DNA of 64,000 nt from NCBI GenBank assembly GCA_034089705.1, contig JAXDTZ010000009.1, positions 135,046-199,045 on the forward strand, in the 5' to 3' direction. A program made the translations under genes and the position numbers. Positions 1,474-49,333 of the stretch are shown piece by piece. The notes under the pieces were generated by a model. It did no database searches. It was not told the origin of the DNA and saw only the letters and a list, made by a program, of their open reading frames with translations. This stretch comes from Candidatus Enteromonas sp. GTDB taxonomy: Bacteria; Bacillota_I; Bacilli_A; RFN20; CAG-826. Position 1 is the first letter of the stretch. The number at the start of each line of letters is the position of its first letter.

Positions 1474-1612
1474 GCTAAAAATAACTCCTTTTAGTTGTCG
1501 GTATGTGACTTATTCTAACACCATCGTCTTCCTTAAGGAAGAAAACAATAGTGGCGCCTCCTTGAGACATGGCATTCATGAGGTTCTGCCCATTCAAACA
1601 CGGAAGAATGAT

Positions 1613-1645
1613 CAAAAAAACCAAGCGTGAAGCTTGGCTTTTTGT
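1613..1645. terminator. Bidirectional rho-independent terminator (A-run, CCAAGC-gtga-GCTTGG, T-run)
   Basis: A hairpin flanked by A7 and T5 sits directly 3' of the 1660 minus CDS stop. Confidence 0.6.
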
Positions 1646-1659
1646 TGTAAAAGAATCGA

Positions 1660-3072
1660 TTAGTTCTCTTTCTTCTTGCGAAGGAGGAAGACCCCGCCAA
1701 CGGCAATAAGTCCGAGGACCGAGACGCCGGCGACGACGAACCCGGTGGTTTGATCGCCGCTGGCATTCATGCCTGTATGATTCAAGGAATTGGTCTTGGA
1801 ATTGGCAATGGCACGAAGTTGGCCAACGATTTGTTCGATTCCGACCCAATCCTCCCTACCGTCAAGGGTGCTTTCATAAGTCATAATCGAAGAATCTTTC
1901 AAGAATTTAAGTTGTTCTTCTGAGTATCCCGCATCTAAGGTGAACGTATCATATTCTCCAACCAAAGCCGAAGCGGTCTCTTTGTTAACGTTGCAAACGG
2001 ATTTGCTTTCAGCGTCGTTAATGGCGGATTTCACGCGAAGAACGAAATCAACGATCTTTCCCTTGTTTCCATCGACAACACCATCCGCGGAACCGTCCCA
2101 ATAAAGAAGAGATTTCGATACAAGGTCTAAGTCTTTTGTTTTCTTTTCTTTATCACCGCTTAATCCGTTGTTGATTATGATCTTATTGTCTTTCGAACCG
2201 GAAGAGAAAGGAACCTTATAATAGCTGATATCGGCACCCCCAATTTTCACTGAATCCGCGGTAGGATTCATATCTACAACCTCATTCGAACCCTGGAGGC
2301 TCAAACCCGGCCAGGATCCCAAGTGCTCGTCCAACGTAGACTCAGTATTAAAGGCATACGCGGACCAAAAAACCATAATATGGCTGGATTGGGTGACATA
2401 GAAATAATCGTCATTTTCCAAAGCGGTAGCCGTGCCGTAAAGCGTTAAATCTTTATCAAGAATTGACGGGCTGAATTTAGTTTGTCTTGCTTCGTCGGAA
2501 TACCAATCGTAACGAACGCCTTTTTTATGAATCTGGGGATAATACTTCTGCCCTGCAACGGGGTATTCCAGTTGCGATTGAATTTGTTGGTAGGCTCCGT
2601 CTTTAAGAACATTCAACGTAACATTGTATACGCTCCGCCATGTCCCTTCTCCCCAAGAGTCATCTTTAAGCATGTATGTATTTCCGTCATCCGGCACATC
2701 TTTTAACGCTAAACTTCCAGTTTCGGTCCATCTATTATTCCAATTATTTTCAGTGGTGTTTGGATTCATACGGCAAAAAATCACCGTTGTATAACCACCA
2801 TTGGGGACAGTTGCCCGGTAAAGATCTGTTTGGTTTTCGACCTGGGTCATACCGCTCCAAGCGTTCTTATCCCCTACATAAAAATACGCAGCAAAACGGG
2901 CGTTATCCTTTTTCCAATTTTCGTTAACTTTGAGATAAATCGTAGAACGTTTGCTGATGTCAGCTTTCGTTTGAATGGCGGGCTCGTTGGCGTTCACCGC
3001 AACGACGGTCGCTAGTGCCCCGGCGGACATCGCCATAGCGGCAAGTCCGAGAATTAAATTTCTTTTCTTCAT
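1660..3072 (-). CDS. Secreted, cell-anchored protein with two CBM25/CBM26-like starch-binding modules, a signal peptide and a C-terminal TM anchor (start refined from the track's 3192)
   Basis: It starts MKKRNLILGLAAMAMSAGALATVVAVNA (signal peptide) with RBS AAAGGAC. Two modules match the CBM25/26 pattern (YF..W.GM...YxxTVP...TVIF...N; W.SWPGLSL...YYKVPF..IIINNG...DLDL..YW). The C-terminus GFVVAGVSVLGLIAVGGVFLLRKKKEN is a TM helix plus basic tail without an LPXTG. GC content is clearly lower than the flanking DNA. Confidence 0.7.
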   Translation of the reverse strand: MKKRNLILGLAAMAMSAGALATVVAVNANEPAIQTKADISKRSTIYLKVNENWKKDNARFAAYFYVGDKNAWSGMTQVENQTDLYRATVPNGGYTTVIFCRMNPNTTENNWNNRWTETGSLALKDVPDDGNTYMLKDDSWGEGTWRSVYNVTLNVLKDGAYQQIQSQLEYPVAGQKYYPQIHKKGVRYDWYSDEARQTKFSPSILDKDLTLYGTATALENDDYFYVTQSSHIMVFWSAYAFNTESTLDEHLGSWPGLSLQGSNEVVDMNPTADSVKIGGADISYYKVPFSSGSKDNKIIINNGLSGDKEKKTKDLDLVSKSLLYWDGSADGVVDGNKGKIVDFVLRVKSAINDAESKSVCNVNKETASALVGEYDTFTLDAGYSEEQLKFLKDSSIMTYESTLDGREDWVGIEQIVGQLRAIANSKTNSLNHTGMNASGDQTTGFVVAGVSVLGLIAVGGVFLLRKKKEN

Positions 3073-3115
3073 AAAAATAGTCCTTTTGATTTTAAAAGTG
3101 GCTACTTCAAACGAA

Positions 3116-3129
3116 TGTAACCGCTTACG
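3116..3129. promoter_or_regulatory. cre-like (CcpA-type) palindrome aTGTAACCGCTTACg in the promoter region of the surface CBM protein
   Basis: It matches WTGNAANCGNWNNCW at about 13/14 positions and lies 44-57 bp upstream of the 3072 start codon. Confidence 0.4.
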
Positions 3130-3441
3130 GAGTAATTTATACGGCCAAATCGGGAAAAAAACAAATTTTTCGTAGACGATTTGAGATGACATAACACTTT
3201 CTAAGAAAGCGTTTTTATCCCAAATTCAAAAGAATTCGGTATTATCGAGATTATTTCAAGAGGCAATAGGAAATAGCATCCTTACTTTTGTTAAATGAGT
3301 GCCGATAAATACGAGATTTTTTTCCTCATTCTTTTATTTTTTGTGTGATTTTTTCCCGTTGTGGCTCGAGTTTAAGGGGAAAATGATTTATCATTTTGCC
3401 GTTATGTTTCGGCTTCGCGCCGAATAGGAGATTATCGACCA

Positions 3442-4638
3442 ATGGCAAAATGCATCGCCGTCAACGCGGGCTCCAGCTCGCTGAAATACAAACTCTTCGA
3501 GATGCCCGAAGAGAAAGTTCTCTGCTCCGGCATCGCCGAGCGGATTGGGCACGAAGATGGGATCTTCACCATCAAATTCGGGGAGGAAAAGCACACGGAA
3601 ATCCTTCCCCTTCCCGACCATGGGGTGGCCGTCCAATTGCTGTTTAAGGCCCTCATCCAATACGGCATCGTCAAGGATTTGAAGGAAATCGTCGCCGTCG
3701 GGCACCGCGTGGTCCAAGGCGGGAAGTACTTCAGCTCCTGGGCGGATTTCACCGAGGACACCATCGCCAAAATCACCAAGCTCATTCCCTTGGATCCCCT
3801 CCACGCCCCGGCGCACTTGACCGGATACCACGCTTTCGCCAAAGCCCTTCCCGGGGTTCCCGAAATCGCCGTATTCGACACCGCCTTCCACCAAACCATG
3901 GCCCCGGAAGATTACCTCTATCCGATTCCCTATGAAATGAGCGAGAAATACGATTGCCGCCGTTATGGGGCGCACGGAACTTCCCACAACTACCTGCAAG
4001 ACAAAGCCAAAAAGGACTATTTCCCGGGTCAAGAGCACGTCAACATCATCACCTGCCATATTGGATCGGGCGCTTCTTTGGCCGCGATTTCGGATGGCAA
4101 ATGCGTCGCGACTTCCATGGGACTCACCCCGCTTGGGGGAGTCATGATGGGCACCCGCACCGGCGACCTCGACCCCTCCGTCATGTCCTATTTGTGCGAT
4201 TGCACCGGAATGAACGCCGCGGAAATCTACGATATCTTCAATAAGAAATCCGGCTTCCTTGGCGTTTCGGGGGTCTCCAACGATTCCCGCGACGTCGAAG
4301 CGGCGGCCGCCCAAGGCAATCCCCGCGCCATCTTGGCCATCCAAATGTTCGCCCGCACCATCGCGAACTTCATCGGCCAATACTACGTCCGCCTCGGCCA
4401 CGTCGACATGATCGTCTTCTCCGCTGGCATGGGCGAGAACGCCCCCGACATGCGCAAACTCGTGCTCGAAGAAACCCAAGAAGCCCTTGGCTTATCCATC
4501 GATTACGAGCTCAACGCCAAAGTCCGCGGCAAGCAAGCCTTGCTTTCCAAACCCGATTCCAAAATCAAAGTCGCGGTCATCCCCACCGACGAAGAAGTCA
4601 TGATCGCCCGCGATTGCTACGCCAGGATTTCCCAATGA
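3442..4638 (+). CDS. ackA: Acetate kinase
   Basis: MAKCIAVNAGSSSLKYKLFEM... full-length ASKHA-fold acetate kinase. An AGGAG RBS sits 8 nt upstream. Confidence 0.95.
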   Translation: MAKCIAVNAGSSSLKYKLFEMPEEKVLCSGIAERIGHEDGIFTIKFGEEKHTEILPLPDHGVAVQLLFKALIQYGIVKDLKEIVAVGHRVVQGGKYFSSWADFTEDTIAKITKLIPLDPLHAPAHLTGYHAFAKALPGVPEIAVFDTAFHQTMAPEDYLYPIPYEMSEKYDCRRYGAHGTSHNYLQDKAKKDYFPGQEHVNIITCHIGSGASLAAISDGKCVATSMGLTPLGGVMMGTRTGDLDPSVMSYLCDCTGMNAAEIYDIFNKKSGFLGVSGVSNDSRDVEAAAAQGNPRAILAIQMFARTIANFIGQYYVRLGHVDMIVFSAGMGENAPDMRKLVLEETQEALGLSIDYELNAKVRGKQALLSKPDSKIKVAVIPTDEEVMIARDCYARISQ

Positions 4639-5649: not shown

Positions 5650-5681
5650 GACCCGCCTAACGTAGGCGGGTTTTCTTTTTC
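5650..5681 (+). terminator. Rho-independent terminator after nrnA (ACCCGCCTAACGTAGGCGGGT + T-run)
   Basis: A perfect 8-bp stem followed by TTTTCTTTTTC. Confidence 0.75.
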
Positions 5682-5762
5682 TTGAATACGTTGCTCTATA
5701 TCTTTTCCTTCGCTCTCGCGCGTGCGCTTACCACGTACGAGAATTATGGTATAATCATCCCG

Positions 5763-8700
5763 ATGAAATTCGTCCCCCTCAATTGCCGCAGCGGATATTC
5801 CTTTCTCCAAAGCGGATGGACCGTTTCCAAGATGGTCGGCAGCGCTTTGAAGAAGGGTTTTTCCCATGTGGGAATCGCCGATTTAGGATCCTTCCGGGGA
5901 TCCCCGGAACTCGAGAAGCTTTGCCTTCCGCGGAACATCACCCCCGTCCATGGGGTGGCCTTTGCCTTAGGAGAAGGGACTTTGGTTTGCTACCCTTCGA
6001 GCGAAGAAGGGTATCGACTCTTATTGAGCAAGGTTGAGAAATATTCCCGAAACGCCTTAACCCTGGATGATTTTTCTTCTTCCGAAGATGGGTTCTGCGC
6101 GGTTTACGATCTGGGGGAAGCCCCGTTCCGAAACGCCTTGCCCCAGGAAAAGAAGGAACTCGCCTCGCGTTTATCCGAGATCGCGCGGCATTTCGCCTCT
6201 TTTACTCTGGGATTGCCCCGGATGGAGGTATATCCCGAACTCGTCGCCTATATCCATGACTTCGTCCGCGAATTCCCCTATCCCTTGATCGCCTTCCCCA
6301 AGATGCTTTACGCGAAGGAAGAAGACGCGATCACCGTCTCCATCCTTTCTTCGGTGAACGAGGGAAATACTTTGGACGTCAAATCCCATTCCGGACCCTT
6401 CCATTTCTTAAGCGAAGCGGAAGCGAACGTCTCCTTTTTCGAAGAGGAATTGCTCGCCACATTCGAGTTCGCCAATCGCCTTTCTTCTTTTACGTTTACC
6501 AAAAAGCGAGGCAAACCGATTTCTTATCCTTTGAATGGCTTATCAGCGGAAACCGCCCTGGCAAAAGCCTGCATGGAAGGGCTCGCCAAAAAAGGATTGC
6601 TCCAAAATCCCGTCTATAAAGAACGGTTGGACTACGAACTCGGCGTCATCTCCTCCATGGGGTATTGCGATTATTTTTTGGTGGTCGCCGATTACGTTGC
6701 TTACGCGAAGAATTCCGGCATCCTCGTGGGGCCTGGGAGAGGATCAAGCGCCGGAAGCTTGGTCGCCTTTGCTTTAGGCATCGTCAAAGCCGACCCCATC
6801 CAATACGGCTTGCTCTTCGAACGCTTCTTGAACCCCTCCCGTCACGAACTCCCCGACATCGACGTCGACTTTGAAGACACGCGCCGGGAGGAAGTCATCC
6901 GTTACCTCGCCGTGAAATACGGGTCGAACCGCGTCGCCCACGTGATGACCACCCAAAGCATCATGGCAAGGCAGGCCGTGACCGATGTCGGACGGGTGTA
7001 TGGATACCCTTCCACCCAAGTCCGCCTCTTGTCTTCCTCCATCAACCCCCGGTGGGACCTCGTGGAGAACTACAAGAAAAACGAAGCCTTCCATTCTTTG
7101 GTCGACAGCGACGCCTACTACAAGGAATTCGTCTCGTTGGCCCATAAAATCGAAGGGCTTCCCCGGCAAAGCGGCCTCCACGCGGCCGGCATCGTCTTAA
7201 ACGAAGAGCCCCTCGATTCCGTTTTGCCAATCACAAGCGATCCGAGCGTCGGATACGTCGAACAACTCGATAAGGACGACCTCCAGGACCAAGGGTTCTA
7301 CAAGATGGATCTTTTGGGCATCACCAATTTGTCCTTGATCCATCACATCCTCGATTTGATCGAAGAACATCATGGCGTCCACCTCCGTTACGAAGACATT
7401 CCCGTGGATTCTCCCGAAGCCATCGCCCTCATCGCCCGGGGAGAAACCATGGGGCTCTTCCAGCTCGAATCTCCGGGCATGAACCGGGCGATCGCGGAAG
7501 TGAAACCCACTTCCTTAGAAGATTTATGCGCCATTTTGGCGCTCTTCCGTCCGGGTCCAATGGAGAACATCCCTTTGTTTGCGAGGCGAAAAGCCGGGAA
7601 AGAGAAAACGACTTACCTTTGCCCCGAACTCGAGCCCATCCTTTCTTCTACCTATGGGGTCATCGTCTACCAAGAGCAGATCATGCGCATCTTGCAGGTC
7701 GTCGCGGGGTTCGACCTTGGGAAAGCGGATATCTTCCGTCGCGCCATTTCGCATAAAGACATTTCCGCGATCCTCGCCATGAAAGAGGAATTCCTGAGGG
7801 GATGCCAAGAAAACGGCCACGAGAAAGAAGCCCCGGCCCTCTATTCCTTCATCGAGAAATTCGCGGGTTATGGGTTCAACAAATCCCATTCCCTCTCCTA
7901 TGCGATGCTAGCCTCCCAAATGGCCTATTTGAAAGCCAAATACCCGTTATGCTTCTACTGTGGCCTTTTGGATTACGGGGCGGGAGGCAAAGAGAAAATG
8001 CCTTTGCTCTTGCGCGAACTCAAGAAGAAAAGGATCCCTTTCCTCTTGCCTTCTTTAAACGCGTCCACGCTTCAATTCTCTCCTTGCCAGGATGGCATCC
8101 TCATTCCCTTTTCTTCCATCCAAGGGGTTCCCACGGGATTCGCTTCTTCGGTAATCGACGAACGGATCGAACATGGCGAATACGCAGACTTCTTCTCTTT
8201 CTGCCTCCGCAGCATCCACCTGGGGTTAACCTTGCCCGTCTTGATTTCCCTCATTAACGCGGGGGCTTTCGATTCCCTTTTCCCGAACCGAAATTCGTTG
8301 CGCCTCACCGCCCCTTCGGCGATGCGCTACGCAGAACTCTTCGGAGGGGAAAACAGCCTTCTTTCTTCCTTTGGGAGCGAACCCCCCGTTTACGTGGATA
8401 TCGCTTCGAACAAGGAAGAAGACCTCTCAAACGAGAAAGCGGTCCTTGGGATGATGGTTTCGGGATCGCCTCTAGACCGTTACGCGGAAGCGATGCAAAC
8501 CCAAGGAATCCAAAAGATCGGGGAGATGGGGGATGCACCGTCGTTACGCGTCGCCGGAATCCTCTCTTCTTGCCGCGCCTTTTCTTCGCGAAGCGGGAAG
8601 AAAATGGCTTTCCTCGTCCTCGAAGACGAAGTCGCGAGCGTGGAAGCCGTGGTGTTTGAAGAAACTTACAACGAATCCTTCCCCTTCTTAAAAGAGGGGA

Positions 8701-8792
8701 ACGCCTTGTCCTTGGTCCTCCAAAAAGATCCCCGGAAAGAAGGGAAATACATCGCCAAGGACATTCGACTGTTATCAGGAGCCCAATCATGA
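5763..8792 (+). CDS. dnaE: DNA polymerase III alpha subunit, DnaE-type (the track ORF begins at 5682 and the true start is uncertain)
   Basis: The N-terminal PHP domain begins MKFVPLNCRSGYSFLQSG, with the metal-binding His residues replaced by N and R. It has a DNA polymerase III alpha catalytic core and a C-terminal OB fold. Its stop overlaps the polA ATG as ATGA. Confidence 0.9.
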   Translation: MKFVPLNCRSGYSFLQSGWTVSKMVGSALKKGFSHVGIADLGSFRGSPELEKLCLPRNITPVHGVAFALGEGTLVCYPSSEEGYRLLLSKVEKYSRNALTLDDFSSSEDGFCAVYDLGEAPFRNALPQEKKELASRLSEIARHFASFTLGLPRMEVYPELVAYIHDFVREFPYPLIAFPKMLYAKEEDAITVSILSSVNEGNTLDVKSHSGPFHFLSEAEANVSFFEEELLATFEFANRLSSFTFTKKRGKPISYPLNGLSAETALAKACMEGLAKKGLLQNPVYKERLDYELGVISSMGYCDYFLVVADYVAYAKNSGILVGPGRGSSAGSLVAFALGIVKADPIQYGLLFERFLNPSRHELPDIDVDFEDTRREEVIRYLAVKYGSNRVAHVMTTQSIMARQAVTDVGRVYGYPSTQVRLLSSSINPRWDLVENYKKNEAFHSLVDSDAYYKEFVSLAHKIEGLPRQSGLHAAGIVLNEEPLDSVLPITSDPSVGYVEQLDKDDLQDQGFYKMDLLGITNLSLIHHILDLIEEHHGVHLRYEDIPVDSPEAIALIARGETMGLFQLESPGMNRAIAEVKPTSLEDLCAILALFRPGPMENIPLFARRKAGKEKTTYLCPELEPILSSTYGVIVYQEQIMRILQVVAGFDLGKADIFRRAISHKDISAILAMKEEFLRGCQENGHEKEAPALYSFIEKFAGYGFNKSHSLSYAMLASQMAYLKAKYPLCFYCGLLDYGAGGKEKMPLLLRELKKKRIPFLLPSLNASTLQFSPCQDGILIPFSSIQGVPTGFASSVIDERIEHGEYADFFSFCLRSIHLGLTLPVLISLINAGAFDSLFPNRNSLRLTAPSAMRYAELFGGENSLLSSFGSEPPVYVDIASNKEEDLSNEKAVLGMMVSGSPLDRYAEAMQTQGIQKIGEMGDAPSLRVAGILSSCRAFSSRSGKKMAFLVLEDEVASVEAVVFEETYNESFPFLKEGNALSLVLQKDPRKEGKYIAKDIRLLSGAQS

Positions 8793-11392
8793 ACGGAAAA
8801 CGCCTTTATTGCATCGACGGGAATTCATTGCTCTTCCGCGCCTTCTACGCGACCTATTTCGGGGATCCAAGCACCTTGATGCGGACCAAAGACGGACGGC
8901 CGAGCAACGCGATTTTCGCCTTTTCCAACATGCTTTGCAAATTGCTGAGCCTCCTCGAGCCCGGGGATTTGATTTTCTTAGCATTCGACAAGGATTCCCA
9001 AACCTTCCGGAAAGAGGAATTCGAAGGGTACAAAGCCAATCGCAAAGCCACCCCGGAAGAGCTCAAATCCCAATTCGCCCCCGCCCGAGACCTCGTGAGG
9101 GCCATGGGCATCCCCATGCACGAAGAGCACGGGGTCGAGGCTGATGATCTCTGCGGTTCGGCGGCCAAACTCGCCGAAAAAGAGGGGTATCAAGTGGAAA
9201 TCTACACGAGCGACAAAGATTATCTCCAGCTCGTGAGCCCCAGCGTCACGGTCCATCTGCTCAAAAAGGGATTCCGCGATTTGCTCGACATCACCCCCGA
9301 ATCGATGGTGGAGAACTTTGGGTTTTCCCCGCTCCAAATCATCGATTACAAGGGGCTTCGGGGCGATGCTTCCGACAACCTCCCCGGGATTCCCGGGGTG
9401 GGGGACAAAACCGCGACCAAATTGATCGCGGAATACGGTTCCTTCGACGCCATCATGGAAGCCGCTAAAGCCGGGACGATCAAAGGGAAGCTCGGCGAGA
9501 ACTTGATCGCCGGGGAATCCATGGGGCGGCTCTGCTATAACCTCGCGACCATCAAGACGGATTGCCCTCTCCCCTTTGGGTTAAGCGAAATGGAATATCG
9601 CGGCTATTCCCCCGAAGAGGTGGCCCATTTCGCGGAGAGTTACGAACTCAAGAGTTTGCTTTCCAAAATGCCGAAATCCGCGATTCGTTCTTCTAGTAGC
9701 GAAGAAAACGCTTTGCCTCCGCTTACCGAAGACCTTTCCCCTTTATGGGACGCCGAAGCCATCGGCATCGCCATCGATGGGGAAGAAACCTACCACACTT
9801 CCCCGTTTCGGGGAATTGGGTTAGCCACCAAAACATCTCGCCATTACCTGACCCAAGAGGAATTGCTTCAAAATCCAAGGCTGATCGCTTTACTAGAGTC
9901 CCCTCTTCCCAAATACGGCTATGACCTCAAGGCCATTGCCTGTTCCTTGAAGAAGGTCGGCATTTCCCTTTCCGGTTTGTCCTTCTCTTTGGAACTCGCC
10001 GCCTATCTCCTCGATTCCACCTTGGGGAGCGATCCCCATTTGGTCCTGGGCTATTTCGGGGCGAGTTTGCCCGAAGAAGAATCGAACCTTCTTTCCTTTG
10101 GATATCCCGAAACGACTTCTGCCTTAGCGGCGTATTCCTTGCTCTTGCAGCCCAAAGCCTTAACCAAACTCCAAGAAAGCGGGAACGCTTCTTTGTATTT
10201 CGACATCGAGTTGCCTTTGCTTTCGATCCTCGCGAACATGGAAAACGAAGGCTTTCCTTGTAACGGAGAGGAACTCGCCGTAATCGGGGAGGAATTCCGG
10301 AAAAAGAAAGACGCTTTGGAAAGGGAAATCGCCTCTTTGGCGGGCCACCCCTTCAATATCTCCAGCCCCAAGCAAGTGGCGAGCGTCCTTTACGACGAAT
10401 TGCTTCTGCGGGGCCCCAAATCCCGAAGCACTTCCATCGAGGAACTCAAAAAACTGATCCCCCTCCATCCCATCGTCGGCAAAATTTTGGAATACCGGAA
10501 ATACGCGAAACTCGTGGGCACCTACATCGATGGCATCTTGCCCCACATCGATTCGGAAGGGAAGATCCACACGGTGTTCCATCAAACCCAGACCGCGACC
10601 GGCCGCCTCTCTTCTTCCGACCCCAACCTCCAAAACATCTCCACGCGCGATGAAGAGAGCAAAGAGATCCGAAAAGCGTTCCATTATTCGGACGGAACAC
10701 GAATCCTAAGCCTCGACTATTCCCAAATCGAACTCCGCATCCTCGCTTCCTTGAGCGGATGCTCGAGTTACATCTCCGTCTTCCAAAGCGGGCGGGACGT
10801 CCATAGCGAGACCGCCCGGGCCATCTTCCACATCCCCGAAGGGCAAGAAGTCCCCCATGAGTTGCGGCGAAAAGCCAAGGCGATCAACTTCGCGATCATC
10901 TACGGGACCACGCCTTTTGGCTTAAGCGAGCAAATCGGGGATTCCCCGGCGGAAGCCGCGAGGATCATCGCTTCCTTTTACGAGGCCTATCCCGAGATCG
11001 CGGCCTATTTGAAGCAAATCCTCGAAGACGGGGAAAGGGATGGTTACGTCTCCACGATGTTCCACCGCCGAAGGTATTTAAGCGAACTCCATGACCCGAG
11101 TTACGTAAAACGGGAAGCCGCGAAGCGCGCGGCCTTAAACGCCCCAGTCCAAGGCACCGCGGCGGACCTCATCAAAGTCGCGATGATCGCCGTGGATTCT
11201 TTGTTAAAAGAAAAACAAGCGAAAACCAAGATGGTCCTCCAGATCCACGACGAACTCCTTTTCGCGCTCGCTCCCGGCGAAGAATACCTCATCCCCCTTT
11301 TGACAAAGACCATGGAAAGCGCAGTGAAGCTTTCCGTCCCCTTGAAGGTCGAAGGCAGCGTCGGGGAGAGTTGGTTCGAGGCGAAAGACTGA
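8789..11392 (+). CDS. polA: DNA polymerase I
   Basis: It has an N-terminal 5'-3' exonuclease (MNGKRLYCIDGNSLLFRAFYA) and the pol motifs RRKAKAINFAIIYG and HDELLFA. Confidence 0.95.
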   Translation: MNGKRLYCIDGNSLLFRAFYATYFGDPSTLMRTKDGRPSNAIFAFSNMLCKLLSLLEPGDLIFLAFDKDSQTFRKEEFEGYKANRKATPEELKSQFAPARDLVRAMGIPMHEEHGVEADDLCGSAAKLAEKEGYQVEIYTSDKDYLQLVSPSVTVHLLKKGFRDLLDITPESMVENFGFSPLQIIDYKGLRGDASDNLPGIPGVGDKTATKLIAEYGSFDAIMEAAKAGTIKGKLGENLIAGESMGRLCYNLATIKTDCPLPFGLSEMEYRGYSPEEVAHFAESYELKSLLSKMPKSAIRSSSSEENALPPLTEDLSPLWDAEAIGIAIDGEETYHTSPFRGIGLATKTSRHYLTQEELLQNPRLIALLESPLPKYGYDLKAIACSLKKVGISLSGLSFSLELAAYLLDSTLGSDPHLVLGYFGASLPEEESNLLSFGYPETTSALAAYSLLLQPKALTKLQESGNASLYFDIELPLLSILANMENEGFPCNGEELAVIGEEFRKKKDALEREIASLAGHPFNISSPKQVASVLYDELLLRGPKSRSTSIEELKKLIPLHPIVGKILEYRKYAKLVGTYIDGILPHIDSEGKIHTVFHQTQTATGRLSSSDPNLQNISTRDEESKEIRKAFHYSDGTRILSLDYSQIELRILASLSGCSSYISVFQSGRDVHSETARAIFHIPEGQEVPHELRRKAKAINFAIIYGTTPFGLSEQIGDSPAEAARIIASFYEAYPEIAAYLKQILEDGERDGYVSTMFHRRRYLSELHDPSYVKREAAKRAALNAPVQGTAADLIKVAMIAVDSLLKEKQAKTKMVLQIHDELLFALAPGEEYLIPLLTKTMESAVKLSVPLKVEGSVGESWFEAKD

Positions 11393-11393
11393 T

Positions 11394-12752
11394 ATGCCGG
11401 AACTCCCCGAAGTCGAAACGGTCGCCCGTTATCTGCGTAGCGCTTTGCTAGGAAAAACCCTCACTTCCTATTCGTTGCTTTTCGCTTCGAATTTTAAAGG
11501 CAAGGATCTCCTTCCCGCCTTGGTGGGACAAAGATTGCAAGAGATCCGTCGAAAAGGGAAATTCCTGATTTTCGAGTTCGATTCCTTGGTTCTCGTCTCC
11601 CATCTCCGCATGGAAGGGCATTACGAGGTGAACGCCTCTTCTTCTTTGCTTCCTTACGAACGGCTTTCCTTTGGTTTTGGGAAAGATATCCTCCATTATG
11701 GAGACAAACGGAAATTCGGAACCTTCGACCTCATGAAGAAGGAAGACCTCCCCTCCTTCCTTCCTTTGCTTCATTTAGGAAAAGAGCCGAGCCAAATGGA
11801 AGCGGAAGAACTTTATGAAAAGCTTGTCGGCAAAACTCTTCCCATCAAATCCTTGCTCCTAGACCAATCCCTCCTCGCGGGGATTGGGAATATCTACGCG
11901 GATGAGATCCTCTACGCGTGCCATATTTCTCCAAGAACCAAGGGAAAGGACATCTCGTTCATACAATGTCAAAAAATCATTCAAGAATCGCGAAGAATCC
12001 TAAATTTTGCTATTCAAAACGGCGGGAGTAAAATCGCGACGTTTGAAACCCCAAACCACCTTCCTTCCATGCAGAATCACCTCCGCGTTTACGGAAGGAA
12101 AGGGGAATGTTGCCCCCAATGTGGAACGAGGTTCACGTATCGAAAAATCGGAGGCAGGGGGACGACCTATTGCCCCGTTTGCCAAACTTCCCCTTCCTTT
12201 GTCCTAGGGATCACCGGCCCCATCCATTGTGGAAAAAGCACGGCGACTTCCTATTTTGCGAGCAAAGGATACGCGGTATTTGACGCGGATCGAGAAGTCA
12301 AAGCCCTCTATCGCCTTCAAAGCGTTCAGGCGGCTTTGAAACGGGTGTTTGGCAAGGAAGCCGTCCATAAGGGAACCATCAACGCGCCGTTTCTTCGGGA
12401 AGCCTTGGCAAGCAACACCAAGAAGAAACGGGAATGGGAAGCGTATCTCGACCCTTTGCTTTTCAAACGGGCCAAGGAAATGGTGGAAGAGTTTCCCCGC
12501 GTCGTATTCGATGTTCCTCTTTTGCCTAGAAGTTCCTTGCTAAATTTCACCGACGCGGTGATTTTCCTCTCTTCCCCGGAAGAAACGAGGATGCGCCGCC
12601 TGGAAATCGAAGGGAAAGACGCGGAAGCGTTGCTTTCCTTAAACGCGGATTACCCCATGAAAAAAGCCGCGGAAATCGCGACTTTTCGGATAGAAAATAG
12701 TGGGAGCAAAGAAGAGCTCTTCGCTTCTTTATCAACTCTTCCTCTTCCCTGA
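11394..12752 (+). CDS. mutM: Fusion protein: formamidopyrimidine-DNA glycosylase (Fpg/MutM) N-terminal domain plus dephospho-CoA kinase (CoaE) C-terminal domain
   Basis: The N-terminus MPELPEVETVARYLR and the zinc finger CPQCGTRFTYRKIGGRGTTYCPVCQ are followed directly in frame by a CoaE P-loop, GITGPIHCGKST. The gene starts 1 nt after the polA stop. Confidence 0.85.
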   Translation: MPELPEVETVARYLRSALLGKTLTSYSLLFASNFKGKDLLPALVGQRLQEIRRKGKFLIFEFDSLVLVSHLRMEGHYEVNASSSLLPYERLSFGFGKDILHYGDKRKFGTFDLMKKEDLPSFLPLLHLGKEPSQMEAEELYEKLVGKTLPIKSLLLDQSLLAGIGNIYADEILYACHISPRTKGKDISFIQCQKIIQESRRILNFAIQNGGSKIATFETPNHLPSMQNHLRVYGRKGECCPQCGTRFTYRKIGGRGTTYCPVCQTSPSFVLGITGPIHCGKSTATSYFASKGYAVFDADREVKALYRLQSVQAALKRVFGKEAVHKGTINAPFLREALASNTKKKREWEAYLDPLLFKRAKEMVEEFPRVVFDVPLLPRSSLLNFTDAVIFLSSPEETRMRRLEIEGKDAEALLSLNADYPMKKAAEIATFRIENSGSKEELFASLSTLPLP

Positions 12753-18683: not shown

Positions 18684-20039
<1,356 letters not shown>

Positions 20040-20343
20040 TCAGCGAAAACATTATAGGCATTTCTTATATCAAGAGGAAGGGAAAACCGAATTATCGGTA
20101 TTCTTTTGCCGATGGAAATTCGCCGATTTTGGTTTATTTCCTGTTTACCCAACTGCAGAATTGGGAAAAAGCATGGATTTTGGGAAGAAGGAAACGCGAA
20201 TTTTGTCCAAAACGAGAGAAAATGGAGGAAAGAAGGAATATTGGCCTAAGGTGAAAACGCCCTATATATAAGAAGATACGCAACCGCAGATTGCTTTCGG
20301 TTGGCAAAGAGGAAGCGCATAATGGTTGGGAAAGGAATGTCCC

Positions 20344-20745
20344 ATGAAAAAAGTTGTGTTCCCCCTTGGCATCGTCGCCATCATTCTCCTCGCCATCAGC
20401 ATCCTCGCCCACTTCCTCTTTGGAGGTTTCGTTCTCTATTGGAGCCAGGATCCTAGACTCATTTCCTACATCCTCTCCAAAATCCCCCAAACCAATCCTT
20501 ACGTCCCAACCGAGGCGGAAATCCAAATGGGGATCTTCACTTTTGGCTGGGCTGTTATTGCTTTGGGGTTCCTCTTGATCCCCGGGCTCATCGTGGATAT
20601 CCTCATCACTACTTCTTCCCGCGACGAAAGCAAACCGAACGGGCTTGCCAAGGGAATCACCCTTGGAGTCCTCGACCTCCTGTTCGGAAGCAAATTCCTC
20701 GGAGTCCTCGAAATAGTCGAAGTCACTTGCTTCGAAACGAAGTAA
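20344..20745 (+). CDS. Small hypothetical membrane protein (3-4 TM)
   Basis: Hydrophobic helices, with a terminator downstream. The overlapping 232-aa minus ORF looks like antisense (D/E/G-rich). Confidence 0.45.
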   Translation: MKKVVFPLGIVAIILLAISILAHFLFGGFVLYWSQDPRLISYILSKIPQTNPYVPTEAEIQMGIFTFGWAVIALGFLLIPGLIVDILITTSSRDESKPNGLAKGITLGVLDLLFGSKFLGVLEIVEVTCFETK

Positions 20746-20757
20746 TCGGAACGGGTT

Positions 20758-20812
20758 TCCCCACTTTGACGGAAAAAGCTTTCCTTTCCTTGAAGTGGGG
20801 TTTTCTTTTGGA
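20758..20812 (+). terminator. Terminator hairpin (CCCCACTT...AAGTGGGG + TTTTCTTTT)
   Basis: An inverted repeat followed by a T-run. Confidence 0.55.
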
Positions 20813-21328
20813 ATCAAAATCCCAAATATCAAATACGGGAAATCGTCCTTTTTAAAATCGGGACAGTTATCAAAGCAACGGCGAATCCGTACCGCGAAAC
20901 AAGTGTGGCAACGGTGAGCACAAATCGCGCAAAAACCCGGATTCTCTTTTTGGGCGAAAAATAGCAGAAAACGATACGAAAAAGGCCTCCAGGATTAGGG
21001 GGAAACCAGGAGGCCACGCTATTCGCGCACATGTATTATCATGAATACGAGTAATATTTTCAAGCGGAATAACCCCGTTTCCTTTGAATTCTTTTTCCCG
21101 GATTACTTTTCGTTTTTTGGATTTTATTTTAGCGATTTTATTAATTTAGAAATCTAAATTTTCGGTGGTTTTTTATTAGATAACGGTTATTTTCTTTCTA
21201 CCATTCCATCTCAATTGCGACATCTTTTGCCCTGTAGGATTTTACTTTTCGTTTTTTCTTTCCTGTTTATCGATGGAATCTTAGTAATGATTCCGACTGG
21301 AAATTCTCTCCTTTTCCGCGGATTTCTC

Positions 21329-21356
21329 TTGAATGGTTTTAAAATCGTTCTATACT
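21329..21356 (+). promoter_or_regulatory. sigma-A-like promoter for the thrS leader: TTGAAT-16-TATACT
   Basis: Spacing and consensus match about 8 nt upstream of the proposed leader start. Confidence 0.5.
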
Positions 21357-21363
21357 CTTTTTG

Positions 21364-21572
21364 GCGATGAACGAGACAAGCCTACTCCGAATACGGAGCA
21401 AGACAGGCACCACTCGGGAGCCACTCCGCGAAATAAGTGAAGCGTATTCCCTGCGATAAAGGGGCCAAAGAGCGAAAAAGGGTTCGCCTTTTTTCGAAGT
21501 AAGGTGGTACCGCGTCGTCCCCGACGTCCTTGCAGAAAGGATTTCGGGGACGTTTTTATTGGAGGTTACCAC
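21364..21572 (+). promoter_or_regulatory. T-box riboswitch leader of thrS (Thr specifier ACC/ACU candidate in GGCACCACUCGG)
   Basis: Conserved T-box sequence AAGGTGGTACCGCG at 21501-21514. A terminator hairpin GTCCCCGA...TCGGGGAC + TTTTTAT sits at 21517-21557, immediately before the GGAGG RBS and ATG. Confidence 0.75.
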
Positions 21573-23468
21573 ATGTTACTCATTTACGAAGGAAAGGAAT
21601 TCGAGGTCGCTTCCCCGTTGAACGGGTTCGAAGCCGCGAAGATCTTGGATCCCAGCAAGAAAAACAAGGCCATTGCCGTCAAGCAAAACGGACGTTTGAC
21701 CGACATGAACGTTTCGGTGGAAGAAGGGGAAATCGAATTCGTCCTTCCGGATTCCCCCGAGGGTTTTGAGATGATCAACCATTCCTGCTCCCACTTGATG
21801 GCGCAGGCCATTCTCCGCCTCTACCCGCAGGCCAAATTCGGTTTCGGCCCCGCGATCGAGGAGGGGTTCTATTACGACGTCGATTTCGGGGACGTCGTCC
21901 TCACCGACAAAGACTTCCCCGCGATCGAAGCGGAGATGAAGAAAATCGTCAAGGAAAACATCCCCTTCCGCCGCAAGGAGGTTTCCAAAGAGGAAGCCCT
22001 AGCCTTGTTCGCCGACAATCCCTACAAAATCGAGCGCATCCAAGAGCTCGAAGGGACCATTTCGGTTTACGAGCAAGGGGAATTCAAGGACCTTTGCCGC
22101 GGTCCTCACGTCCCGAGCACCGGGTATTTGAAGCACTTCCGCCTTCTGAGCCTCGCCGGGGCCTATTGGAGGGGCGATAGCAAAAACAAGATGCTCACGC
22201 GCATCTACGCGACCTGCTATCCGACCGAAGAGTCCTTAAAGGAACACCTCGAAACGTTAGAACGCCGCAAGGCCAACGACCACCGCCGCTTAGGGAAGGA
22301 ACTCGGGCTCTTCATGCTGAGCGATTACGCTCCCGGAATGCCCTTCTTCCTCCCCAAGGGTCAAATCGTTTACAACGAACTCCTTTCTTATTGGCGCGAA
22401 ATCCATCAAAAATACGGCTACAGCGAAATCACGACCCCGACGATGATGTCCCGGGAATTGTGGGAAACTTCCGGTCACTGGGACCATTACAAGGACAACA
22501 TGTACACGACGAAGGTCGATGAAGCCGATTACGCGATCAAGCCGATGAATTGCCCTGGGGCGATTCTGGTTTACCAAAACGGCATCCACAGCTACCGCGA
22601 TCTCCCGCTTCGGTACGCCGAACTCGGCCATGTCCATCGCCACGAAGCTAGCGGGGCCCTCAACGGCCTATTCCGCGTCCGCGCCTTCACCCAAGACGAC
22701 GCCCACATCTTGATTCGCCGCGACCAGATCGAAGAGGAAGTCAAATCGATCATGAAACTCATGGACGAAGTCTACGACGTCTTCGGCCTCACCTACCGCA
22801 TCGTCCTCTCGACCCGTCCGGACGATTACATCGGGGAAATCGAATTCTGGAACCAAAGCGAAGAAGCCCTCGCTTCCGCTTGCCGCGATTCCGGGCACGA
22901 CTTCCAAATCAACCCCGGGGATGGCGCCTTCTATGGCCCGAAGCTCGACTTCAAGCTCCGCGATTCCATGGGTCGCACCTGGCAATGCGGAACGATTCAG
23001 CTCGACGTGAACTTGCCCCACCGCTTCGGATGCTTCTACATCGACGAATCCGGGAACAAGGTGGAACCCGTCATGCTGCATCGCGTGGTGTTCGGTTCGG
23101 TCGAGCGCTTCCTCGGCATCTTGATTGAAAACTACGGAGGCGCCTTCCCGACTTGGCTAGCCCCCGTCCAAGTGGAGATTTTGCCGGTGAACAACGACGC
23201 CCACCTGGAATACGCATCGGAAGTTCTTGCCGAACTTCAAGGCATGAAGGTCCGCGCGGAAATCGATTCGAGCAACGAAAAACTCGGTTATCGCCTCCGC
23301 CAAGCCGTCGTAAGCAAGATTCCTTATACCTTGGTCATCGGGGACAAGGAAAAGGAAAATCATCTCGTCACTTACCGCATCTATGGCCAAAAGGAGCAGA
23401 TCACCGTCTCCTTGGAAGAATTCAAAGCCTTGATTTCCGAGTCGATTTCGAAAAAACTCCGTTACTAA
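21573..23468 (+). CDS. thrS: Threonyl-tRNA synthetase (start refined from the track's 21504)
   Basis: MLLIYEGKEFEVASPLNGFEAAKI... with a TGS domain, class II core and anticodon-binding domain. Confidence 0.95.
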   Translation: MLLIYEGKEFEVASPLNGFEAAKILDPSKKNKAIAVKQNGRLTDMNVSVEEGEIEFVLPDSPEGFEMINHSCSHLMAQAILRLYPQAKFGFGPAIEEGFYYDVDFGDVVLTDKDFPAIEAEMKKIVKENIPFRRKEVSKEEALALFADNPYKIERIQELEGTISVYEQGEFKDLCRGPHVPSTGYLKHFRLLSLAGAYWRGDSKNKMLTRIYATCYPTEESLKEHLETLERRKANDHRRLGKELGLFMLSDYAPGMPFFLPKGQIVYNELLSYWREIHQKYGYSEITTPTMMSRELWETSGHWDHYKDNMYTTKVDEADYAIKPMNCPGAILVYQNGIHSYRDLPLRYAELGHVHRHEASGALNGLFRVRAFTQDDAHILIRRDQIEEEVKSIMKLMDEVYDVFGLTYRIVLSTRPDDYIGEIEFWNQSEEALASACRDSGHDFQINPGDGAFYGPKLDFKLRDSMGRTWQCGTIQLDVNLPHRFGCFYIDESGNKVEPVMLHRVVFGSVERFLGILIENYGGAFPTWLAPVQVEILPVNNDAHLEYASEVLAELQGMKVRAEIDSSNEKLGYRLRQAVVSKIPYTLVIGDKEKENHLVTYRIYGQKEQITVSLEEFKALISESISKKLRY

Positions 23469-44267: not shown

Positions 44268-44519
44268 GCGAGCCCCCCTTATTAGGTCATTTCATTATCC
44301 CATTGAACCCACAATTTGAATAGGGGCAATGGGCGAAAAGCCTTGGAAGGAATCTTCATGGAAACAGGATTCGATCACAACAAACGATAGAGGAAAAGAA
44401 AACCTTTCTAGTCGCGGTCTTAAATTAGACCTCAGCAGGCTGCCATCGCCATTTCAAAACGCAACGGAAAAGCGTTCCCATTGGTTTACATATAAAAAAG
44501 AAACGCTCCCAAAAATTAA

Positions 44520-48316: not shown

Positions 48317-49333
48317 TTATTTTTTGAACGGTTTGGTGCTTTGCCCGGGGACGAATTTCGCGTCGAAGTGGGCGCCCCGTTCGATCAGGTCGTGGTTCAT
48401 GAGGTCCGTGAGCATGTACATCGCGCGTTTTCCGACTTCGAACATGTCGATGTGCATCGCCGAGAGCATCGGGCGGACGATGTAGGAATACTTGGTGCCG
48501 ACGAGGGAGACGATCTGAATGTCGTCGGGGATCGAGAGCCCGGAATCGGTCGCGGCGTTCATGATGGCGCAGGCGAGGGAATCGCGGTAGCCGATGAAGA
48601 ATCCCTTTCGGTTCTCGGGTTTCTTGAAATATTCGAGGAAGTCCTGGTAGGTGTGGGTGTAGGAATCGTCGCTGTTGATGACGGAGAAGGGCTTTCCGAG
48701 TTCCTTATGGGTCTCCACGAAGACGCGTTCGCACCGCGAGAGCAAGCGCCCGGCGTTATGGACGTGGAGGAAGGTCATCGGGACCTCGCCCCCGTTCTCC
48801 CAGTAAGCGGCGATCAAGTTGCGGAGGGTGGCGCTGTAGGAGAAATGGATGTGGCCGACCTTTTCCCCTTCCACTTTGTTGTCGATGACGACGATGGGGA
48901 CGTTGTAGGAGGAAATGGTGGCGATGTCTTCCGTGTTGAGTTGGTCATCGAAGACGATGGCCCCGTCCACGTGGGTGGAGATGACTTTCTCGATCATCGC
49001 GATCGCCTCTTCCCGGGAATGGGAGGTGGCGAAGAGGGTGAGGACGTAGTTCTTGTCGCGGGCGGTTTCGGTGATGCCCGAGAGGAGGTTGGAGATGTAG
49101 ACGTAGTTGGCGCTGGGGATGACCACCCCGATGTTGGTCGTGCGGTTGGTCGCGAGGCCCTGGGCAAGCCCAGAAGGCTTGTAACCGAGTTTGGTGATCA
49201 TGGCTTGGACCCGTTCGCGGGTTTGCTCGGTGACCGTGCCCCGTTTGTTGATGACGCGGCTTACGGTGGCGAGGGAAACTCCGGCGGCTTTGGCGACTTG
49301 GTAAATCGTGACGCGGTCTTTCATGTTTTCCAT
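48317..49333 (-). CDS. LacI-family transcriptional regulator, possibly CcpA-like
   Basis: N-terminal HTH VTIYQVAKAAGVSLATVSRVINKRG and a periplasmic-binding-like effector domain. 338 aa. Confidence 0.8.
   Translation of the reverse strand: MENMKDRVTIYQVAKAAGVSLATVSRVINKRGTVTEQTRERVQAMITKLGYKPSGLAQGLATNRTTNIGVVIPSANYVYISNLLSGITETARDKNYVLTLFATSHSREEAIAMIEKVISTHVDGAIVFDDQLNTEDIATISSYNVPIVVIDNKVEGEKVGHIHFSYSATLRNLIAAYWENGGEVPMTFLHVHNAGRLLSRCERVFVETHKELGKPFSVINSDDSYTHTYQDFLEYFKKPENRKGFFIGYRDSLACAIMNAATDSGLSIPDDIQIVSLVGTKYSYIVRPMLSAMHIDMFEVGKRAMYMLTDLMNHDLIERGAHFDAKFVPGQSTKPFKK

Follow-up and report, generated by a model that had tools for sequence, protein, structure and literature searches.

A gene beside glgB in Candidatus Enteromonas encodes a putative non-catalytic alpha-glucan-adherence protein with an apparently exchangeable ectodomain

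What does an AT-rich gene for a secreted protein do beside the branching-enzyme gene glgB of a small-genome gut bacterium, and how did it come to differ so clearly in composition from its neighbors? We addressed this question in a 64-kb stretch of Candidatus Enteromonas sp. (contig JAXDTZ010000009.1; the whole stretch is called the window here). The gene, which we call gene X, occupies positions 1660 to 3072 of the minus strand (ATG at 3072 to 3070, stop codon at 1662 to 1660) and encodes a non-catalytic surface protein of 470 residues. Features of gene X and its flanks given below lie on this strand unless stated otherwise; L numbers denote related contigs and P numbers homologous proteins. 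An earlier note on this DNA had proposed a horizontally acquired glycan-capture protein with two CBM25/26-like modules (CBM, carbohydrate-binding module). We consider it moderately probable that gene X encodes an adherence protein for alpha-glucan (starch, maltodextrin, or glycogen) acting by the mechanism proposed below. Its origin we read differently, as a resident locus at which ectodomains appear to be exchanged.

An NCBI protein from a metagenome-assembled genome (MAG) of 'Candidatus Enteromonas sp.' matches the gene X product over its sequence with 100% identity. A longer open reading frame (ORF) beginning at 3192 would encode 510 residues. We rejected this start because the homologues and the NCBI model begin at MKK and because the extension overlaps the promoter and cre-like region described below. 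Several features that the earlier note had read from the letters hold up. The Pfam and NCBIfam matches of gene X include no catalytic family. The predicted signal peptide, residues 1 to 28 (2989 to 3072), starts with MKKRN, continues into a hydrophobic core, has a presumed cleavage site between VNA and NE, and keeps its position across the family alignment; it contains no cysteine, and thus no lipobox. The family alignment comprises 47 sequences, to which all counts out of 47 refer. With this alignment, the AlphaFold2 (AF2) model had a predicted local distance difference test score (pLDDT) of 80; with a first alignment of 22 sequences, only the N-terminal module was resolved (mean pLDDT, 50). 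Both proposed modules were modeled as beta-sandwiches, as structure prediction had been expected to find.

The second module is CBM26-like. Residues 223 to 330 (2083 to 2406) are all-beta in the AF2 model (block pLDDT, 77 to 96), and family members place this module with CBM26. The Pfam CBM26 model (PF16738) is matched by 14 of the 47 members, with a best E value of 3.6e-9, and in the members that we examined individually the match falls at the module-2 position; P0046 and P0048 reach 28.9 and 31.2 bits, respectively, against a cutoff of 28.1. Searched against Pfam by itself, module 2 of the query gave no match. A profile of module 2 searched against the PDB matched the CBM26 of Ruminococcus bromii Sas6 (7uwu; E = 6.9e-6) and Eubacterium rectale Amy13K (6b15; E = 2.4e-3), and the profile also matched the CBM26 of R. 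bromii Amy4. In the Sas6 CBM26, W63 and Y55 form the stacking surface for cyclodextrin, and Y53 contributes a hydrogen bond (bioRxiv 10.1101/2022.11.20.514607). Sas6 residues Y53, Y55, and W63 align with Y239, F241, and W254 of the query in a hidden Markov model (HMM) alignment, giving an aromatic platform, of the kind to which W32 of LaCBM26 also belongs, that is retained across the family: position 239 is Tyr in 46 of 47 members, position 241 is aromatic in all 47, and position 254 is aromatic in 45. The position of the hydrogen-bonding Gln103 of Sas6 is Lys in the query and Gln in 32 family members. A near-invariant platform among 47 very divergent sequences points to purifying selection on sugar binding.

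The first module, residues 40 to 150 (2623 to 2955), is a beta-sandwich with an AF2 pLDDT of 88 to 98 and, from its sequence and model, is best called an unclassified putative starch-binding module. It is 40 to 50% identical to modules that occur in one to three copies on proteins with GH13 alpha-amylase, CBM26, X25, or CBM48 domains. This type of module forms the N terminus of the GH13 proteins P0010, which sits in a three-amylase cluster, and P0011, and it accompanies CBM26, X25, and CBM48 in P0004, P0008, P0020, P0022, P0023, P0026, and P0028. The query module itself matched Pfam CBM26 at 19.1 bits (E = 0.0015), under the 28.1-bit cutoff. In the homologues, canonical CBM26 is a separate domain adjoining the N-terminal-type module, which is not itself called CBM26. 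The top domain-level Foldseek match was the CBM41 of Thermotoga maritima PulA (2j71; probability, 0.99 to 1.0; TM-score, 0.51; E = 0.02); Foldseek with the whole multidomain model gave mostly spurious alignments to immunoglobulin and Fab structures, and only the CBM41 matches were at domain level. A PDB search with a 23-sequence profile of the module returned nothing at E <= 10. Residues W53, F60, Y85, R101, W111, W115, and W140 are invariant. Comparison of the two modules by hhalign gave a probability of 25% (E = 7.6e-4); this similarity is weak, and we therefore do not claim that they belong to one family. The description of both modules as CBM25/26-like can be kept for the second, while the first is a beta-sandwich with a subthreshold CBM26 match and a modest CBM41 fold match. 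The suggested HMM search had a similarly divided outcome: the query's own CBM26 match is subthreshold, and the Pfam support comes from the 14 family members.

Two further domains lie beyond the modules that the earlier note had seen. Between the modules is a Listeria-Bacteroides repeat (Flg_new or InlB B-repeat-like; residues 151 to 222; 2407 to 2622; AF2 pLDDT, 73 to 96). PF09479 (Flg_new; compare TIGR02543) is matched by 29 of the 47 family members (best E = 6.4e-13), and the family profile matches the InlB B-repeat 2y5p (E = 0.0017). The query alone is too diverged to match Flg_new in Pfam, retaining a degraded version of the family pattern GY.F.GWY..D......LYA. The second module is followed by a helical domain of about 95 residues (331 to 425; 1798 to 2082), modeled as four helices and a beta-hairpin with an AF2 pLDDT of about 90 to 96. 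Cys360, within the motif SVC-x-[IV]-x-K..A..LV..Y, is present in all 47 members. This domain had no Pfam match, a PDB profile search gave only coiled-coil noise, and an alignment of the helical domain, used as a query, returned no matches. Its place in the protein is like that of the helical bundle in Sas20 domain 1 (PMC9112005).

How would such a protein be held at the cell surface? The C-terminal anchor region (1663 to 1797) consists of a Ser/Asn/Thr-rich stalk (residues 426 to 442), a predicted transmembrane (TM) helix (443 to 464), and the tail RKKKEN, and AF2 models a helix at residues 442 to 469. The end of the protein reads FVVAGVSVLGLIAVGGVFLL-RKKKEN, with the positively charged tail directly after a hydrophobic segment. 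A TM segment and basic tail are found in 47 of 47 family members and an LPXTG-like motif, L[PA]xT[GAN], in none, in line with the proposed TM helix and KKKEN tail lacking LPXTG. The anchor segment is 82 to 89% identical to those of P0002 and P0034, the ectodomain 28 to 58%. The simplest reading of this C terminus, judged on sequence, is a sortase-independent membrane anchor.

NCBI instead names the product 'LPXTG cell wall anchor domain-containing protein', which would make it a sortase substrate linked covalently to peptidoglycan. Its TIGR01167 score of 17.2 bits does exceed the cutoff of 15.9, and residues 430 to 434 read LNHTG. However, only model positions 6 to 33 are aligned, with the first five left out, so that a borderline match, limited to the hydrophobic tail, is the source of the name. 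LNHTG is not conserved, reading LNAIR in the closest homologue, P0002. Candidatus Enteromonas corresponds to GTDB genus UBA733 in order RFN20, family CAG-826 (PMC8035907); CAG-826 is predicted to be peptidoglycan deficient, and RFN20 is reported to lack srtA and srtB (PMC10868615). We regard sortase attachment as very improbable and the host as probably wall-less and sortase-less. The NCBI product name is misleading and could be corrected.

Is gene X a recent arrival beside glgB? It is the strongest compositional anomaly of the window. Its GC content is 0.451, against a mean of 0.545 +/- 0.027 for the 36 other window ORFs (z = -3.45), and its GC content at third codon positions (GC3) is 0.480, against 0.692 +/- 0.066 (z = -3.19), the lowest value elsewhere being 0.547. 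Its codon-usage distance is the largest among the window ORFs (z = +3.3), and the lowest-GC 1.4-kb stretch of the 64 kb (0.41) is the gene X region. The GC, GC3, and codon-usage checks agree with the earlier note that the gene is AT-richer than its neighbors; the background, given there as about 58% GC, measures 53.2%. The flanks are also AT-rich (1474 to 1659, 0.398; 3073 to 3441, 0.344). True intergenic gaps elsewhere in the window have GC contents of 0.39 to 0.43, and thus only the ackA-side flank, the lowest of the window, counts as unusual.

Such a composition could mark a recently acquired genomic island, with a foreign starch-capture gene from a lower-GC gut Firmicutes bacterium inserted beside glgB. 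The up to 50% identity of the N-terminal module to amylase modules of other organisms and the occurrence of family members in genomes of 33 to 38% GC would both suit this origin, and the earlier note had favored it. The distribution of the gene argues otherwise. When 1.84 billion representative proteins were scanned in full with query residues 150 to 435, a small family emerged, with 49 clusters, mostly of 450 to 510 residues and of the same architecture. After the query's own record, the best matches were P0002, P0034, P0035, and P0036, all of which are syntenic with gene X. A word-indexed search with the same residues found only P0001 and P0002, a profile of the four closest sequences, searched against genome contigs, yielded only two loci, both distant, a scan of metagenome contigs for the anchor-coding 30-mer gave 0 matches, and an exact look-up of the window AckA sequence returned no record.

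The shared locus has polA, dnaE, the DHH phosphoesterase gene, and ackA on one side, divergent from gene X, which is followed in its own direction by glgB, glgP, and a gene for a 160-residue protein, with fba convergent. The slot between ackA and glgB-glgP is filled by family members in five related contigs. At the syntenic sites of L003, L007, L010, and L017, flanking proteins are 82 to 95% identical to those of the window, and the X proteins are 26 to 38% identical. L003 compares with the window at 95.5% for GlgB, 91% for AckA, 89.5% for the DHH protein, 75% for DnaE, and 38% for X; for L010, the identities are 86% (GlgB), 84% (DHH), 82% (AckA), 52% (DnaE), and 26% (X), so that the slot is occupied even where flanking proteins are only 52 to 86% identical. 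We found no tRNA, integrase, transposase, or meaningful flanking repeat around gene X (repeats were at chance level), and tblastn against plasmids gave no homologue. In addition, both ends of the gene, signal peptide and anchor, are conserved with native composition, and the 1474-to-1659 flank has ordinary GC. An inserted island is therefore quite improbable. Lateral exchange is real, but what it moves is alleles and not an island.

The evidence for swapping is clearest between L003 and L017, which belong to the same species (AckA, 99.7% identical; GlgB, 99.4%). Nucleotide identity is 98.7% across the 5703 nt that end at about codon 17 of X and 98.1% across the 3733 nt that begin at about codon 405. 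Between these points, a 1.16-kb core (L003 positions 8052 to 9211) has no nucleotide similarity; the two X proteins have about 41% identity and differ in the type of their N-terminal module. One break point falls within the signal peptide and the other close to where the ectodomain ends on its C-terminal side. Near-identical flanks around a core that does not align imply that alleles were exchanged at a resident locus. In the window, the corresponding replaceable cassette would be the variable, low-GC3 ectodomain-coding core at 1747 to 3054, which has no blastn similarity to L003; the surrounding DNA is about 83% identical to that of L003 up to the ends of X and 74% identical over the leader and first codons. 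We conclude from these comparisons that the locus is vertical and that its ectodomain is swapped as one cassette, the conserved ends serving for homologous recombination, as observed for L003 and L017 and presumed for the window allele.

The domains of X are mosaic in their relationships as well. The N-terminal module of the query is 44% identical to that of P0034 and 33% identical to that of P0002, and the order is reversed for the CBM26-like module (58% to P0002, 37% to P0034). Three N-terminal module types occur at the locus: the amylase-associated type; a CBM25/26-like type, read from motifs; and, in the X of L010, a third type with a weak CBM48 match. In L017, the gene caller had shortened the X allele at 5653 to 7050 to 349 residues (P0035); an upstream start at MKKRYLL gives the full-length protein, with a signal peptide and the different, CBM25/26-like N-terminal module (VEVYFKDVAWW...HFWGG...TWPG). 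Between X and glgB, L010 carries an extra gene for 233 residues (9671 to 10372) with no Pfam match and a GC3 of 0.61, against 0.85 to 0.90, another sign of variable content accumulating in the slot. Among the window, L003, and L007, the noncoding flanks are about equidistant on the 3' side (69 to 73%), and the window is more distant in the 5' leader (58 to 75%), which gives no usable signal on incongruence between flanks and core.

Base composition within the gene follows the same boundaries. GC3 is 0.64 in the signal-peptide codons, 0.70 in the anchor codons, and 0.40 to 0.49 in the ectodomain, and this mosaic of native-like ends and a low ectodomain is repeated in the orthologues. Every X allele from a higher-GC host shows a GC3 deficit (0.48 versus 0.70 to 0.74; 0.70 versus 0.85 to 0.90), and X alleles in low-GC hosts equal their neighbors in GC3. 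The pattern is consistent with a pool of alleles that passes from lineage to lineage without ever ameliorating fully, and exchange of the core would also explain why its GC3 is lower than that of the host genome.

A weakly expressed, fast-evolving gene could in principle reach a similar state in place, through relaxed codon selection and positive selection and without exchange. GC3 among the other window ORFs spans 0.55 to 0.84, several of the highest values belonging to glycolytic genes that are probably highly expressed; a deficit of about 0.2 in all orthologues of higher-GC hosts, with the closest relatives syntenic, would also be expected from such a history. However, divergence in place cannot produce a sharp-edged, nonalignable 1.16-kb core between flanks 98 to 99% identical, nor different N-terminal module types at one locus. 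The ends of gene X have native GC3, and the Big_2 surface proteins encoded at 41844 to 46847 have normal GC3 (0.67 to 0.69). We judge this explanation improbable and continue with cassette exchange.

What ligand would the exchanged ectodomains recognize? The genes around family members point to alpha-glucan. In the window, glgB (1,4-alpha-glucan branching enzyme) lies downstream of gene X on the same strand with its own ribosome-binding site (RBS). Its 5' part occupies positions 1 to 1473 before the gene exits the window, and its Pfam matches are CBM_48, Alpha-amylase (the catalytic domain), and GlgB_N, which confirms the reported adjacency. The product shares 95.5% identity with the 659-residue GlgB of L003, where glgP comes next. 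In L001, from a rumen MAG, a family member lies between an alpha-amylase gene and malQ. In the JGI metagenome contigs L012 and L013 (1 to 21362), P0048 is encoded among four to five clustered GH13 amylase or pullulanase-like genes, some with CBM26 or Flg_new, along with at least two further genes combining Flg_new and CBM26; one of these, beside the family member in L013, has a weak SusF_SusE Pfam match. An ISL3 transposase gene lies at one edge of the starch locus in L012. The glycogen and starch context inferred earlier thus extends across the family, whose members adjoin glgB-glgP, amylase and malQ genes, and multiamylase clusters. The malQ gene that the earlier note had placed elsewhere in the window is at 53698 to 55176 (GH77; minus strand).

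The same divergence of alleles could instead mark a variable surface antigen or adhesin under phage or immunoglobulin A (IgA) pressure, for which starch would not be the physiological ligand and the protein would bind host or microbial glycans or host glycogen or serve as a phage receptor, with its CBM-like folds as scaffolds. Extreme divergence of alleles in near-identical backgrounds is typical of frequency-dependent selection, Listeria-Bacteroides repeats are known from adhesins and invasins such as InlB, N-terminal modules are swapped, and starch binding by the gene X protein is itself something that we infer. Yet the CBM26 platform is almost invariant in 47 divergent members, all three N-terminal module types at the locus are of alpha-glucan type, and amylase, malQ, and glgBP neighborhoods recur in four independent contexts. 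The roles are also compatible, as a starch binder can be a phage or IgA target as well. We consider a protein that is mainly an antigen or adhesin with a physiological ligand other than starch unlikely, although a good deal less so than an inserted island, and prefer the reading as an alpha-glucan-adherence protein.

Under that preferred reading, the gene X protein would be exported by Sec and its signal peptide cleaved. The C-terminal TM helix would hold it on the cell with RKKKEN inside and the N terminus outside, a former sortase-type sorting signal without LPXTG now serving as a plain membrane anchor. Two sugar-binding beta-sandwiches would be displayed, spaced by the Listeria-Bacteroides repeat, and the helical domain may cap or stabilize the CBM26-like binding site, as in Sas20 domain 1. 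The cell would thereby be tethered to starch, or maltooligosaccharides released by other degraders would be captured. The sugars would then be imported, with MalQ and GlgP catabolizing them and GlgB storing them. Gene X would be monocistronic, and the cre-like operator at its transcription start would probably impose catabolite repression through CcpA when preferred sugars are present. Between strains or species, the core would be exchanged with the leader and signal peptide and the anchor end as recombination arms, yielding very divergent alleles with different N-terminal modules.

The elements for such regulation flank the gene. A putative sigma-70-type promoter at 3136 to 3164 has a -35 element TTGTTT (3164 to 3159), a 17-nt spacer, and a -10 element TATAAA (3141 to 3136); it fell under the scanner threshold because the -35 element matches at only 3 of 6 positions. 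The arrangement TTGTTT-N17/18-TATAAAT is kept in L003, and TATAAAT is kept in L007. Directly downstream of the -10 element is a palindromic cre-like operator (cre, catabolite-responsive element), CGTAAGCGGTTACA (3116 to 3129), which on either strand agrees with the consensus TGWAANCGNTNWCA at 13 of 14 positions. The window, L003, and L007 all carry the block GTAAGCGGTTACATTCG unchanged, in leaders that are otherwise 58 to 75% identical between pairs. In position and sequence, the site is similar to amyO, the operator of Bacillus subtilis amyE. A possible partner is a CcpA-like LacI-family regulator at 48317 to 49333 (minus strand), whose best NCBIfam match is TIGR01481 ccpA (E = 1e-52; 180 bits over the full length, under the 442-bit equivalog cutoff) and which has the window's top GC3 value (0.84). 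The RBS of gene X, AAAGGA (3081 to 3086), lies 8 nt upstream of the ATG.

An intrinsic terminator, GCCAAGC-TTCAC-GCTTGG followed by T7 (1613 to 1637), lies between gene X and glgB. Its hairpin is kept in L003 and L007, where an A-to-G change in the 5' arm still permits a G-T wobble pair. A conserved palindrome, TCTTCCTTAAGGAAGA (1527 to 1542), about 55 nt upstream of the glgB start, has the counterparts TTCTTCCTATAGGAAGG (L003) and TTCTTCCTAAAGGAAGG (L007), in a spacer that has otherwise diverged; it may act on glgB-glgP as an operator or through an RNA hairpin. The ackA-X intergenic region also contains a 20-nt inverted repeat (3144 to 3163 and 3346 to 3365; 85% complementary, 182 nt apart), one arm of which, 3144 to 3163, overlaps the putative -35 element and spacer of gene X. 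Rfam found no known RNA in the window.

Several points weigh against alpha-glucan adherence as the role of gene X, or against parts of the mechanism. The query's only CBM26 match of its own in Pfam is the subthreshold one of 19.1 bits on the N-terminal module, and both module 2 and the Flg_new repeat are recognized only through the family. The N-terminal module lacks a characterized relative, its CBM41 fold match being modest (TM-score, 0.51; E = 0.02). The CBM26 of Sas6, RbCBM26, on its own showed no detectable binding to insoluble granular starch or amylopectin (bioRxiv 10.1101/2022.11.20.514607); adhesion to granules is therefore uncertain, and capture of oligosaccharides is at least as likely. 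Cre-like matches across the window are at chance level, with 5 found and 3.1 expected. In the 64-kb window, we saw neither an extracellular amylase nor a maltodextrin ABC transporter. The enzymes GlgB and GlgP are cytoplasmic; because a terminator separates gene X from glgB, their adjacency could be incidental. For the absence of a wall and of sortase, we rely on published work on the family and not on this MAG itself. Finally, the species in which cassette replacement was demonstrated is that of L003 and L017, a sister species to that of the window.

How does the protein compare with known systems? In function, it would belong to the class of non-catalytic starch-adherence proteins that includes Sas6, Sas20, and SusE/F. 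It would be set apart by an anchor independent of sortase, dockerin, or lipid, by the unclassified N-terminal module, by the new Cys-bearing helical domain, and by sharp-edged cassette replacement. Sas20 domain 1 of R. bromii (Sas20d1; 7RAW and 7RFT) is likewise non-catalytic and secreted, as is the Sas20 paralogue RBR_02940 of this species, with a CBM26-like sandwich directly before a small helical bundle. Removing the helical bundle from Sas20d1 lowers its affinity for maltoheptaose about 100-fold, and RBR_02940 has a Sas20d1-like unit, a low-complexity linker, and a C-terminal cell wall anchor (PMC9112005). This order corresponds to module 2, helical domain, stalk, and anchor in the gene X protein. 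Sas6 (CBM26 plus CBM74; 7uwu and 7uww), the best PDB match of module 2, is also non-catalytic and has two CBMs with a spacer between them; unlike the gene X protein, it has a large CBM74, attaches to the amylosome through dockerin and cohesin, and has no helical domain.

SusE and SusF of Bacteroides thetaiotaomicron are surface-tethered, non-catalytic proteins with tandem starch-binding beta-sandwiches, encoded beside alpha-glucan utilization genes. The gene X protein resembles them in lacking a catalytic domain, in its predicted tethering, in its tandem beta-sandwiches, and in its alpha-glucan gene neighbors. In contrast to it, SusE and SusF are N-terminally lipidated outer membrane lipoproteins of Gram-negative Bacteroidota, encoded in a polysaccharide utilization locus, and the query had no match to Pfam SusF_SusE. 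The cell-wall-anchored amylase Amy13K of E. rectale, taken as an example of LPXTG sortase substrates, shares the hydrophobic segment, the positive tail, and multiple starch-binding CBMs, including CBM26. It differs in that the pentapeptide is absent from all 47 members of the gene X family, in that gene X encodes no catalytic domain, and in that the host lineage is reported to be sortase-less. For the layout of the locus, pneumococcal PspA and PspC offer an analogy only. There, too, a conserved leader and signal peptide and a conserved anchor end surround a divergent center that differs between near-identical strains. The family and ligand are unrelated, and the variable part of gene X consists of carbohydrate-binding modules in an uncultured gut bacterium with a reduced genome.

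Other genes of the window complete the setting. The divergent upstream neighbor of gene X is ackA (acetate kinase; 3442 to 4638, plus strand; Pfam Acetate_kinase, E = 1.7e-138), a conserved locus boundary whose synteny is kept in L003, L010, and L017; beyond it are the DHH phosphoesterase gene, dnaE, and polA. Near malQ, the minus strand encodes a galK-like protein (56149 to 57324), an aldose 1-epimerase (galM; 57321 to 58313), a major facilitator superfamily sugar transporter (59969 to 61405), and a Wzy_C or O-antigen-ligase-like membrane protein (62523 to 63974). Two adjacent genes at 41844 to 44267 and 44520 to 46847 (minus strand) encode large proteins of 807 and 775 residues with Big_2 domains and no NCBIfam match. 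These are probably surface proteins, have normal GC3 (0.67 and 0.69), and lack the TM-plus-basic-tail anchor of gene X. The second lowest-GC stretch of the window (19801 to 22100; minimum, 0.43) lies between eno and thrS and holds a gene for a 139-residue putative membrane protein (20326 to 20745) and a long noncoding thrS leader, in which Rfam detected no T-box or other family at the gathering threshold. At 11394 to 12752 (plus strand), a single ORF of 452 residues joins Fpg/MutM and CoaE domains, either by gene fusion or by read-through of two adjacent genes; its GC3 of 0.55 is the lowest after gene X.

Non-catalytic starch-binding proteins such as SusE/F, Sas6, and Sas20 help determine the access of gut bacteria to dietary and resistant starch. 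To our knowledge, those characterized all come from walled or diderm, cultured organisms. As a tentative extension that we think doubtful as a whole, the roughly 50 clusters of the gene X family (at 50% identity) may be a sortase-independent counterpart for starch adherence in uncultured gut bacteria with reduced genomes. Such proteins would be tail-anchored in wall-less cells and would carry a new module family, the 'NARFAAYFF...IFCRMNP...WNQT' type found on many GH13 amylases, and a CBM26 capped by a Cys-bearing helical domain, with the locus as a recombination hot spot. Entire ectodomains, their N-terminal CBMs being interchangeable, could be swapped between strains as cassettes under phage or IgA pressure or to match different dietary alpha-glucans.

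For the biology of the lineage, gene X suggests how an uncultured relative of Bacilli with a genome of about 1.2 Mb, predicted to lack a wall and sortase, may still display glycan-capture proteins. The apparent reuse of a sorting-signal tail bears on the published inference that sortase loss in RFN20 means reduced display of surface proteins. The amylase-associated N-terminal module is a candidate new CBM family. The locus itself shows, in a clean natural case, the replacement of an ectodomain cassette between strains with 98 to 99% identical flanks, and it is a candidate for marking diversification at strain level driven by diet, phage, or IgA.

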